Part shown: in pieces, positions 45,001-48,000 of the stretch
Numbering within the stretch: position 1 is the first letter of the stretch
Layout of the letters: each line of letters begins with the position of its first letter
Assembly (NCBI GenBank): GCA_031363085.1
Contig: JANLTU010000196.1
Span: 53,585 to 117,584 of the forward strand
Length of the DNA: 64,000 nucleotides
Origin: Gammaproteobacteria bacterium
Lineage (GTDB): Bacteria > Pseudomonadota > Gammaproteobacteria > SG8-11
Direction of reading: 5' to 3'
Program-made: the position numbers

Positions 45001-48000
45001 CCGTACCCGTAATCGTGCCCGTCAGCAGTTGCGGAAGCTCAGTGTTTTGCTGAGGGTCACCGCTTTTGCCGCCGCCACAGCCCGCCGTCAACAGTAAAGA
45101 CACCAGCGCTACACTGAACCACCCAAGCCTTTTTATATTCATGATTGCACTTCCCCCTGTGAGCACCCCATAGGATTCGACGCTGATGTTCGAACAGCGC
45201 GAGCAAGCGGTCATTGAAGTCGAATGCGTGACGAAAAGTAATAATGAAAGGGGACAGATTTTTACAGTACGCACTTTTTCAATTGGAAATAAATCTGTCC
45301 CGTTTCTCCGTAAAGCAGACACGCACGGCGCTTGCTCGTAGGTCTACGAAATCACAAATCCAGGCACTTCAGAAATATCTTCTCGACTTTTTGAACACCA
45401 GCTTTTGGCCGCAAGCACGCAGCCACACTGCACCCAAAGGTCGGTGCGCTATTTTGAGCATCGAAATCGAATCTATCCGCGCGTCCAGCGCGGTTTCGCT
45501 GTCGCCAACTTCGACGATGAGGATATCGTGCGGTGCTAGATAATTGGGTGCGTCGCACAATCCGCAGCGCGAATTGTGGCCGTCCTTCCCGGTGCCGTGG
45601 CGAAGCGGCGGCAACCTACTGACCAAATAAATCGGAGTGCGTACCGGTGCGCTCGAAGCACACGGCGTCACCATCGATGCGGTAAATCAACAACCCGTCG
45701 GGTTCGATATGTAGATCGCGCTTTGGCTTCCACTTGCCTTTCAGCGGATGGTCACTTAGCTCGCGCGGTAGAGGATGGTCGGCCAATAGCAGGCCGATAA
45801 CGCGGCGCAGTTTAGCCATGTTCTTGCCGCGCTTCTCAGCCCGCTTTACGTCGCGTTTAAACTAGCCAGCTTGCCGAACGCAATCAGATACCCAGCTTTT
45901 TGAACAGGTCTGCCGCGCTGGAAGCGTGAAACACGTCTTCTCCTTAACCAGTCGCTTATTTCTTGGCTTTCTTCGCAACAAAATCCTTCGCATATTTTTT
46001 AAGTTGCGCTGCCGTCAGCATGAACACGCCACCGCCGCCGCGTTCGAATTCGATCCAGGTGAACGGGACTTTGGGAAAGCGTTCGACCAGTGCGTGTTCG
46101 CTGTCGCCGACTTCGACGATGAGGATGCCGTGCGGCGCGAGATACTCGGCTGCGTCACGCAGGATACGCAGCGCAAATTGCAGGCCGTCCTTGCCGGCCT
46201 CCAAACCCAGTGCCGGTTCTTGATGATATTCCGGCGGCAAGGCGGCCATCTCGGCCGTGGTGACATAGGGTGGATTGCTGACGATCACGTCGTAGCGTTT
46301 TTTGGGCACGGCATTGAATAAATCAGAGCGATGCAGATGCACCCGCTCGTCCACGCCATGCTTGTCGACGTTGATGCGCGCCACCGCCAAGGCGTCCGGC
46401 GAAATATCAACACCGTCCACCTGCGCGGCGGGGAATTCCACCGCGCAAGCGATGGCGATGCAGCCGCTGCCGGTGCATAAATCCAGCATGCGCGTGACGC
46501 GCTCAGCGGCGATCCACGGTGCAAAACGATGCTGAATTAATTCTGCAAACGGTGAGCGTGGCACCAGCACGCGCGCGTCGACAAAAAACGGCAGCCCGGC
46601 GAACCAGGCTTCGTGCGTGAGGTAGGCGGCGGGCATGCGCTTGGCAATGCGCTGTTCGAAGATGCTCAGGATGGAGATTTTTTCCGCGTCGGTCAGGCGC
46701 GTGCCCAGCAACCCTTGCGCGGCTTCATACGGCAAGTGCAGCACGCTCAACACCAAACCAGCGGCTTCATCCACCGCGTTGTCGGTGCCGTGTCCGAACA
46801 CCAGACCCGCTTCATTAAAGCGGCTCGCGCCCCAGCGAATGAAGTCTTGAATCGTGAGCAGTTGTTGTTGCGCGTCGGCGCCGAATTTCATGAGGTAGGA
46901 TCCTGTAGTGGCATGACGTGCCACGAAGCATTGGGGATTTGGAAAGACGTGTCAATGCAGTCAAAACCCCAAGGCGGATAAACTCCGCCGCGCACCTGCC
47001 GATAACCCGGTGCACCCCGACGCTAAACGGATTCTTCTTACCCTGCTTATGCGAAAACCATTTTTGAAAGCATTACTGTGTGGCGCGCTGTGCGTGCTGG
47101 GCTCTGCGCACGCGGCCTTGCCCGAACCGCCCAAGCAAATGCAGGTGCGCGTGATCGGCGTGAACGACGGCGATACGCTCACGGTGGTGGACAGCAAACA
47201 AAAAACCTACATCGTGCAATTGGACGGTATCGATGCGCCGGAAGCCGGGCAGCCCTACGGCGAGGCTTCGAAAAAACATCTGGAGCGCCGCATTCTAAAA
47301 AAGAATGTGGTGCTGATGTGGCACAAGACCGGCAAAGACGGCGCGTTGATCGCCAAGGTATTGCTCAACAACGGCGACATCAACCAACTGCAACTGCGCA
47401 CCGGTTCGGCGTGGGCGACCAGCACACTTTCAGTGAATGTCAGCGGCAACGACACCGGCCGCTACACCAGCGCGCAAGCGCACGCCAAAGAAAAAAGTCT
47501 GGGCTTGTGGCGCGATGAAAATGCGATTGCACCCTGGGATTGGCGCAAGCAGCACGAAGCCAAATAGGGTTGGCGCGCTCAGAGCGCAAGTGTTAAGCGT
47601 CAATGGTTACCGCTGCGCCGCGTTTGATCAGGCCGTTTGAGAGAATGTCTGCCCGGAGGCCGGCACGATGGAGAAACCGTTTGACGACCGCTGCCGGAGT
47701 AAGCTCGGCAGAAGCCAGTAGCGTACCCAAATGCAAGCACGGTTCACACAGCTCAACACCCTTTAACCTGACACTCCCGACGCTGAATTCCTTTCCGACC
47801 AGTGCGTTCAGTCGCACCCCGCGAGTTACAAGGTTCCGATAAGTCATGGCGAGATCGGGTAGACGTGCGTATTCCCGGGAAAAAGCTTCGATTTCCTCGG
47901 CTTCAATGAGTGTGATGTTTTGCCCTGGATAATCATGGCGCGCAAAGTTGCGATCACCTTCGATGCCAGAGTTGGCAACGGCAACTACGCTGTCCTGTGC

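Follow-up and report, generated by a model that had tools for sequence, protein, structure and literature searches.

Decayed or orphan chromosomal toxin-antitoxin (TA) loci are a general and common phenomenon. Among type II systems, the closest described counterpart of the locus considered here is the Escherichia coli DinJ-YafQ pair (PDB 4ML0, 4Q2U, and 4ML2; Maehigashi et al., 2015, PMC4652777). YafQ toxins belong to the RelE/ParE superfamily and are characterized by ribosome-dependent cleavage of mRNA. In YafQ, H50, H63, D67, and H87 serve as catalytic residues and F91 as the stacking residue (PMC4652777). A second point of reference is provided by the attL/attR duplications of gene 3' ends produced by integrative elements that insert there, in which foreign DNA comes to lie between the complete gene and a direct repeat of its 3' region that lacks the 5' part. 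In the window, namely, the whole 64-kb stretch of DNA analyzed, the region downstream of prmB invites comparison with both. The reading favored here, to which a probability of roughly 0.75 is assigned, is that the locus is a non-functional, decayed remnant of a type II DinJ-YafQ system, and that the partial prmB copy found beside it, termed prmB', arose in a secondary event rather than by target-site duplication.

The resident prmB gene, encoding the ribosomal protein L3 glutamine methyltransferase, is intact and occupies positions 45956-46891 of the minus strand, with an ATG start at 46891, a TAA stop at 45958-45956, and a predicted product of 311 residues. An alternative upstream GTG start is found at 46924. 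The product scored 421 bits against TIGR03533 (NCBIfam; cutoff, 229.7 bits) across profile positions 1-283 of 284, and such a full-length match above the cutoff identifies the gene as encoding a PrmB equivalog. The identical protein is encoded in Logan contig L081, while orthologues sharing 86-92% identity are found in L001 and L083-L086. On the same strand and 3' to prmB lie, in order, a dinJ stub, a yafQ pseudogene, and prmB'. Alignment to cassette-bearing relatives delineates a 10-nt spacer, GCGACTGGTT (45946-45955), between the prmB stop codon and a deletion junction, as well as the first 21 nt of the 3' flank of the cassette (45595-45615), with homology to the corresponding loci of L082, L181, and L180 ending at 45595/45594.

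The proposal of the initial annotation that a TA cassette came to lie at the 3' end of prmB and later decayed is borne out by four uncultured gammaproteobacterial loci (L180, L181, L183, and L082), in which intact genes encoding an 80-residue DinJ and a 90-residue YafQ directly follow prmB, at exactly the same position as in the window. In L181 (ENA ERZ27314312 k141_2563333), the gene order is SNase, prmB, the 80-residue dinJ, and yafQ, with L180 (GCA_031421535.1, JANOOV010000099.1), L183, and L082 being of the same type; in all four, every ORF is intact and the toxin starts with TTG. In these cassette-carrying relatives, the spacer after prmB begins as it does in the window, and indeed, GCGACTGGTT aligns with the DNA following the prmB stop codon, this being GCGACCGGTT in L180 and TCGACTGCTT in L181, L183, and L082. 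Over positions 45945-45595, where 351 nt of the cassette are retained, the window shares 90-93% nucleotide identity with the intact cassettes, the closest being that of L180 (93%). The close relatives L083-L086 and L001 carry no cassette. Beyond the prmB stop codon, the DNA of L001 and of L083-L086 differs from one locus to the next, and no exact empty site could be defined.

The yafQ pseudogene spans positions 45616-45883 of the minus strand, beginning with a TTG (45883-45881) that adjoins the antitoxin stop codon and ending with a TAG (45618-45616). A YafQ-like toxin had been placed at 45616-45905, and the assignment holds, as reflected in a match to Pfam PF15738 (YafQ_toxin) at 100-102 bits (cutoff, 30; E-value, 8e-29) and an alignment with E. 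coli YafQ (4ML2) from end to end (E-value, 9e-25), in which the equivalents of H50, D61, H63, D67, H87, and F91 are all conserved. The sequence also scored 75.4 bits against TIGR02385 (RelE_StbE; NCBIfam cutoff, 27.9) and, even with the toxin sequence repaired, 83.3 bits against TIGR00053 (YafQ; NCBIfam), just below the cutoff of 87.25. The N-terminal portion originally given as "...IAFGKLAS" was, however, read in the wrong frame, the true start being the TTG at 45883, from which M-R-S-A-S is read as in the intact homologues. Comparison with L082, L180, and L181 revealed three lesions, namely, the deletion of five nucleotides (ATACC) after codon 6, between 45868 and 45867; a CAG-to-TAG change at 45864-45862, creating a nonsense codon at position 9; and a Trp-to-Gly replacement at 45696-45694, corresponding to W68 of the E. 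coli protein, which adjoins the catalytic D67. At the last position, Trp is found in all aligned close homologues and in E. coli YafQ, and Gly in the window. Owing to the deletion and the TAG, no uninterrupted ORF of some 90 codons is present. Codon differences from L082 number 13 synonymous and 4 nonsynonymous, and those from L180, 9 synonymous and only 2 nonsynonymous; because synonymous differences exceed nonsynonymous ones in both comparisons, decay of the toxin is likely to be recent. The remainder of the 64-kb window yielded no intact dinJ-yafQ pair and no further yafQ or dinJ.

Directly before the toxin, positions 45884-45945 of the minus strand retain the 3' end of an antitoxin gene of the dinJ/relB type, a stub comprising its last 19 codons (GEDVFHASSAADLFKKLGI) and a TGA stop, together at 45943-45884. 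The earlier statement that no DinJ/RelB-type gene is present was thus imprecise. Nucleotide identity to L082, at 90%, begins at 45945, with antitoxin residues 62-80 matching 45943-45887 in a tblastn search. The tail encoded by the stub, GEDVFHASSAADLFKKLGI, is 95% identical to that of the intact 80-residue L082 antitoxin, which is itself homologous to E. coli DinJ (4ML0_A; E-value, 5e-5) and the tail of which aligns with DinJ ...VHKAKDADDLFDKLGI, such that the stub corresponds to the C-terminal toxin-binding tail. Relative to positions 5894-6171 of L181, the window presents a 278-bp deletion that has removed the promoter/operator and the first 60 or so antitoxin codons. As such, the ribbon-helix-helix domain encoded upstream of the toxin in L180-L183 and L082 is deleted from the window; in the relatives' antitoxins, Pfam matches to this fold are weak, while a match to DinJ is found in the PDB. 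Microhomology at the 278-bp deletion, as at the junction between the flank and prmB', amounts to 1-3 nt at most and is uninformative. The strong ribosome-binding site and GTG (AAGGAGaagacGTG) that had been taken to direct the synthesis of a 17-residue peptide correspond to the antitoxin codons K-G-E-D-V, with GTG being the usual Val codon in homologues. These motifs were accordingly rejected as the start of a new gene, both being in-frame antitoxin codons common to the intact homologues.

The prmB' fragment, located at 45478-45592 of the minus strand, is a direct copy of codons 232-270 of the 311 in prmB, 115 nt in length, with indels and a broken reading frame. Window positions 45482-45592 align with 46084-46197 of prmB at 82% identity (93/114, with 3 gaps; E-value, 6e-21), and no run of identity between them exceeds 17 nt. 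With a length of only 114 nt, 3 indels, and neither a start codon nor a match in Pfam, the fragment does not qualify as a gene. In the initial annotation, the last 60 or so codons of prmB were said to be duplicated at 45369-45560. The ten-residue protein block cited there is correct and the nucleotide alignment, at 82%, is real, yet the limits require revision, since the copy begins further 5' (45592) and is not demonstrable up to the stop codon. Indeed, when 45369-45481 was compared with the prmB tails of the window and five relatives at both the nucleotide and protein levels, similarity was not significant, the local nucleotide score being 16, where shuffled sequences averaged 15.6, and the observed protein score being reached by 161 of 2000 shuffles. 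The fragment clearly belongs to the clade comprising the window, L083-L086, L180, and L181, with which CTC ATC GTC is held in common. At 80-84% identity, it is about equally distant from the resident prmB and from the alleles of relatives (L083-L086, L180, and L181), being, at only 114 nt, too short to be assigned to the resident or to a donor allele.

How prmB' came about was considered in the light of two readings. It had been proposed that insertion of the cassette, or of a mobile element, at the 3' end of prmB duplicated the target and that decay came later. In the form considered here, some 115-230 bp would have been duplicated, as in a Campbell-type or att-site event, with both the cassette and the displaced prmB end decaying afterwards. 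The topology, with full prmB followed by the cassette and then by a 5'-truncated direct copy of prmB, fits this scenario, as does the presence in prmB' of states (GTTGGC and GAAACCGCGCTGG) otherwise seen only in the cassette-bearing L180, the very relative to which the window cassette is closest. Moreover, prmB' divergence, at about 16-18%, lies within some two standard errors of that predicted from the age of the cassette (own estimate), such that the age of prmB' is, by rough estimate, compatible with arrival of the cassette in the window lineage. Yet a second prmB fragment is absent from L180, L181, L183, and L082, in all of which the cassette occupies this site intact, as well as from 161 other related prmB loci. 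Furthermore, the 3' flank of the cassette, conserved in the relatives to about +55 nt at least, is cut in the window at +21, precisely where prmB' begins, which argues for the prmB' junction being a later, lineage-specific rearrangement. The prmB similarity also ends after codon 270, short of the stop codon and of native downstream DNA, and with the longest exact match being the 17 nt noted above, neither an att-like core nor an integrase was found. Duplication of the target upon insertion is hence deemed unlikely.

The genomic surroundings were examined for traces of an integrative element. The locus lies within a 3.7-kb variable islet, where part of an IS transposase and a surface-protein gene disrupted by a frameshift are also located, and each relative carries different DNA 3' to prmB. 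G+C content is 63-70% at 42400-45100, as opposed to 55-62% in the flanking genes. The IS fragment, identified in a large protein search as part of a DDE transposase (42475-42825), is the sole trace of a mobile element; it yielded no match in a plasmid collection, and no other integrase or transposase was detected within 10 kb to either side. Between 34980 and 52740, the ORFs correspond to housekeeping genes or to the surface-protein pseudogene, with none encoding an integrase or recombinase, and no tRNA genes were found in the window. Between prmB' and the next gene lies a spacer (45143-45477) of 43-53% G+C, including a 16-bp inverted repeat (45246-45261/45291-45306). Searches with 45143-45481 returned no match among the fetched loci or the rest of the window (blastn and tblastx), nor any Rfam family at an E-value of 1 or below.

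Insight into the spread of the cassette came from synonymous divergence. In all three genome pairs, dS in the cassette (0.13-0.29) is some 3-fold below that in the adjacent prmB (0.51-0.90), which points to horizontal spread of the cassette and to its arrival after the lineages had split, the latter also counting in favor of duplication upon insertion. These values illustrate horizontal turnover of a TA cassette at a fixed chromosomal spot. In L182, the cassette is found in an unrelated context, yet together with the last 33 nt of prmB, between inverted 12-mers. Taken with the low cassette dS and the L180-like states of prmB', this hints that dinJ-yafQ may be a small mobile module that repeatedly enters the site after prmB, using pieces of prmB as a homology handle. 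Such a proposal is speculative and quite improbable; were it true, prmB' would be what remained after a circularized prmB-tail-plus-cassette fragment had integrated by a single crossover of the Campbell type.

For the decayed remnant with a secondary prmB', which is the reading preferred here, the following sequence of events can be envisaged. The toxin would have been inactivated first, or simultaneously with loss of the antitoxin, because a cell deprived of the antitoxin while the toxin was still active would die. The antitoxin, now dispensable, would have been deleted afterwards. A secondary duplicative event, spanning the DNA from about codon 232 of prmB to the position 21 nt beyond yafQ, would have created prmB' as its novel junction. 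This event may have been a tandem duplication or, equally, single-crossover integration of a circularized prmB-tail-plus-cassette from a relative. On either route, further deletion would have followed, with tandem duplication calling for at least one such deletion, by which the extra copy of the cassette and whatever else was left of the prmB tail would have been lost.

Judged from its sequence, nothing at the locus is expected to function. That the remnant is still active, whether as a 67-residue truncated YafQ read from an internal ATG (45819) or as a 16-residue DinJ C-terminal peptide, MFHASSAADLFKKLGI, is very improbable. The 67-codon ORF is open and retains the equivalents of H50, H63, D67, H87, and F91, but it lacks the first 24 residues, corresponding to the first strand and helix, as well as an evident ribosome-binding site, and carries the Trp-to-Gly change at a position where neither E. 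coli YafQ nor any of the close homologues aligned departs from Trp. As for MFHASSAADLFKKLGI, it would be translated from a fortuitous AAGGAG-N5-GTG on the prmB transcript, no terminator-like site being found between the prmB stop codon and the stub, and, corresponding as it does to the toxin-binding C-terminus of DinJ, it could be a mini-antitoxin or decoy. However, AAGGAG and GTG are ordinary synonymous variants of the K-G-E-D-V codons seen in intact antitoxins, and with the cognate toxin dead and no other yafQ or dinJ in the window, there is nothing to neutralize in cis. Gene callers label this ORF, and even intact TTG-start homologues, as a 67-residue YafQ toxin. Exact-sequence look-ups of the 67- and 101-residue window ORFs returned no record, although cluster member P0127 is identical to the former. 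The locus would properly be annotated as a pseudogene of yafQ together with fragments of dinJ and prmB, rather than as a 67-residue "YafQ toxin."

Support for the assembly was sought in Logan short-read contigs. L081 extends from 49221 to 45891 and L177 from 45645 to 42834, both at some 99.9% identity and with no gaps, such that the junctions between prmB and the stub (about 45945; L081) and between the flank and prmB' (about 45594; L177) are each spanned independently, while the toxin body (45646-45890), including the 5-nt deletion, falls between the two. That the mosaic of TA and prmB fragments is a chimeric join or repeat collapse of metagenome assembly is scarcely credible, since, even though the contig breaks at 45891 and 45645 flank the yafQ body, as expected were near-identical cassettes to coexist in the sample, and stretches of 60 nt show 95-100% identity between the cassettes of different lineages, both novel junctions lie in these independent contigs and the identical 67-residue ORF is recorded from a 136-kb NCBI contig.

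When the locus is compared with known systems, the toxin can be aligned with E. coli YafQ from one end to the other and keeps the key residues, the C-terminus of the relatives' 80-residue ribbon-helix-helix antitoxin (...DLFKKLGI) resembles that of DinJ (...DLFDKLGI), and the antitoxin gene precedes that of the toxin as in E. coli, with the toxin start abutting the antitoxin stop codon in these loci. Unlike the E. coli system, that of the window is not intact, having a 19-codon antitoxin and a toxin that is frameshifted, prematurely terminated, and altered at W68 (W68G). The prmB-linked cassettes of L180, L181, L183, and L082 resemble that of the window in their position after the prmB stop codon and in how the spacer starts, but differ in having a promoter region, full genes, a flank of at least 55 nt, and no downstream prmB fragment. 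As in attL/attR duplications, gene and truncated direct copy bracket foreign DNA; by contrast, no integrase accompanies the window locus, its copy falls short of the gene end and offers no identity core, and the bracketed DNA is 351 nt of truncated cassette. Neither an identical-core repeat reaching the gene end nor recurrence in element-bearing genomes was seen (161 related loci, together with L180 and L181). On its own, the locus is of little consequence, being ordinary genome debris and not a working system. With its toxin frameshift and nonsense codon, partial deletion of the antitoxin, and placement in an islet rich in pseudogene and IS remnants, it is like decayed or orphan TA loci in general, from which it is not distinctive; thanks to the intact orthologous loci, however, the succession of decay steps can be retraced, such that the window would offer a clean example of type II TA decay in which the toxin was probably hit first and the antitoxin then deleted.

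In the window, prmB (46891-45956; scoring 421 bits for TIGR03533, cutoff 229.7) is followed by a dead DinJ-YafQ toxin-antitoxin cassette, with prmB, the remaining 3' end of dinJ, yafQ and prmB', a decayed 115-nt copy of part of prmB (45478-45592), all found on the minus strand. Cassette-like DNA begins 10 nt past the prmB TAA stop, at 45945, and runs for 351 nt to 45595, being 90% identical to the intact cassette of L082, a contig from a related uncultured gammaproteobacterium. The YafQ-like toxin of the initial annotation was confirmed (Pfam YafQ_toxin, 100 bits), although not the different N-terminal frame ('IAFGKLAS') assigned to it, as the true start is a TTG at 45883, directly 3' of the antitoxin TGA, an arrangement seen in all intact homologues. 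The supposed AAGGAG…GTG expression signal corresponds to antitoxin codons K-G-E-D-V. Likewise, the antitoxin, reported as absent, has lost its first ~60 codons but not its last 19, which remain at 45943-45884 and encode GEDVFHASSAADLFKKLGI*, i.e., the final 19 residues of the 80-aa L082 antitoxin.

When the intact cassettes of L082 and of two similar contigs, L180 (GCA_031421535.1) and L181 (ENA ERZ27314312 k141_2563333), were used as reference, the window was seen to carry a 278-bp deletion (L181 5894-6171) that took out the spacer, the promoter region and the first antitoxin codons, together with lesions in yafQ. These comprise a 5-nt deletion (ATACC, between 45868 and 45867), a CAG to TAG change at 45864-45862 and a Trp to Gly replacement at 45696-45694, corresponding to W68 of E. 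coli YafQ, a position occupied by Trp there and in all aligned close homologues. With damaged codons left out, yafQ differs from that of L082 at 13 synonymous and 4 nonsynonymous codons and from that of L180 at 9 and 2, respectively; this synonymous excess therefore places the gene under purifying selection until recently. Given how type II systems work, the toxin would have been inactivated before, or together with, antitoxin loss. Two independent Logan short-read contigs, L081 (49221-45891), spanning the prmB/dinJ junction, and L177 (45645-42834), spanning the flank/prmB' junction, are gap-free matches to the window (99.9% identity). Logan cover stops short of 45646-45890, the interval holding the 5-nt deletion; these breaks at the toxin body are probably due to the presence of near-identical cassettes in the same sample.

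Neither a YafQ gene nor a second prmB fragment was found near prmB in any of 161 prmB loci surveyed from one genome per species and JGI metagenomes; cassette-bearing contigs were reached via the closest homologue of the toxin, through its 90% cluster. L181 presents the order SNase (minus strand), prmB, 80-aa dinJ and yafQ, with the same type of locus in L180, L183 and L082 and both cassette genes intact in all four. In the comparison with an empty site that had been proposed, cassette-free relatives of comparable prmB identity (L083-L086 and L001) each had different DNA after prmB; this position is a variable spot. Public gene calls (P0121, P0126 and P0127) give a 67-aa 'YafQ' from an internal ATG, including in L180, L181 and L183 with their intact 90-aa ORF, because gene callers overlooked the TTG start, a systematic mis-annotation of this YafQ subfamily. 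Downstream of their cassettes, L181 and L082 have a palindrome, GTAGGCTGGGTT…AACCGAGCCTAC; 3' of yafQ in L183 (~800-850) and L180 (~1225-1270), it is split by a ~44-nt hairpin-forming insertion that looks like a small MITE/REP-type element.

The duplicate of the prmB 3' end described earlier was real over prmB codons 232-270 of 311 (45592-45482 against 46197-46084; 93 of 114 positions identical, or 82%, with three gaps and E 6e-21), whereas past 45478 no significant prmB-tail similarity was detected at the nucleotide or protein level (p about 0.08). prmB' begins 2-3 nt beyond the end of cassette homology. It would mark a lineage-specific duplicative rearrangement, the novel joint linking yafQ +21 nt to prmB codon ~232, reached by tandem duplication or by single-crossover integration of a circularised fragment, with at least one further deletion thereafter. 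The initial annotation had instead read the copy as a target duplicated when the cassette inserted. This is unsupported, as intact cassettes at the same site have no prmB fragment downstream, and the joint cuts at +21 nt into the cassette's own 3' flank, of which ~55 nt are conserved in those relatives; neither an integrase nor an att-like core was found at the locus. Target duplication retains a slim chance for this lineage alone. As for the source of the rearranged copy, prmB' falls in the clade of the window, L083-L086, L180 and L181, with CTC ATC GTC in common, lacks the private substitutions of the resident prmB allele and has two motifs common to L180 only; with 114 nt, it is too short for assignment to a donor. 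Its 16-18% divergence is roughly compatible, by our own estimate from synonymous divergence, with neutral decay since cassette arrival.

The locus sits in a 3.7-kb islet of debris (42280-45955). The spacer at 45143-45477 (43-53% G+C) gave no match in any search made; within it, ~100-160 nt upstream of a lipoprotein start, lies a 16-bp inverted repeat (45246-45261/45291-45306, 94% complementary, 29-nt gap) that could be a terminator-like hairpin or operator. The surface lipoprotein gene (42874-45142, minus strand; G+C 63-70% against 55-62% in neighboring genes) encodes a signal peptide with lipobox, CarboxypepD_reg, two He_PIG, fn3 and RCC1 repeats, stopping after about two RCC1 blades, and is split by a frameshift into overlapping ORFs (45142-44420 and 44433-42874). 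Three independent Logan assemblies call the split identically, so that a sequencing error in the window is excluded. Beyond lies a DDE transposase fragment of an IS (42475-42825, probably to ~42200, minus strand), with homologues containing PF01609 and PF13701 domains and matches that are all short fragments; L177 stops beside it at 42834, consistent with a repeat there.

In the window/L180/L181 pairs, synonymous divergence was 0.13-0.29 in yafQ/dinJ versus 0.51-0.90 in the abutting prmB, the cassette value being about one third of that of prmB in all three (Fisher tests, p = 0.005, 1e-4 and 3e-6), while L180-L181 identity, 80-83% over the prmB tail, rises sharply at the borders to 90-100% over the cassette. 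It follows that the cassette postdates the lineage splits and was transferred horizontally, and cassette-level exchange at a fixed site is suggested. Related cassettes, at 80-84% nucleotide identity, have unrelated surroundings in L169-L175, L184 and L185. L182 (Logan SRR23617140_692201, 990-1720) carries the same cassette, 98-99% like that of L181 as judged by eye, away from prmB and beside an unrelated methyltransferase gene, with CTG replacing TTG as toxin start. The final ~33 nt of prmB have been kept there together with the spacer, and perfect inverted 12-mers (TTGAACCGTGCC … GGCACGGTTCAA), followed by repeated GGTTCAAAAACGG motifs, enclose the entire unit. Fragments of prmB, namely prmB' and the L182 tail, appear to travel with the cassette. 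An 86-aa YafQ variant with an in-frame 4-codon deletion (…AIG----RHPLP…), found in two sources (P0124 and P0125; L185 1625-1885), may be another copy heading for decay.

The initial observation is thus partly confirmed and its interpretation partly supported. The locus is real but ordinary, adding a new, pseudogenised member to a well-known family, with the apparent horizontal turnover at a fixed prmB-adjacent site as its only mildly interesting thread. In terms of sequence, the window toxin keeps the equivalents of H50/H63, D67, H87 and F91, to which catalysis in YafQ has been ascribed (Maehigashi et al., PMC4652777). Compared with E. coli DinJ-YafQ, the toxin can be aligned over its full length (4ML2, E 9e-25) and the antitoxin C-terminus is alike, the L082 antitoxin being homologous to E. 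coli DinJ (4ML0_A, E 5e-5), including the C-terminal …DLF(D/K)KLGI.
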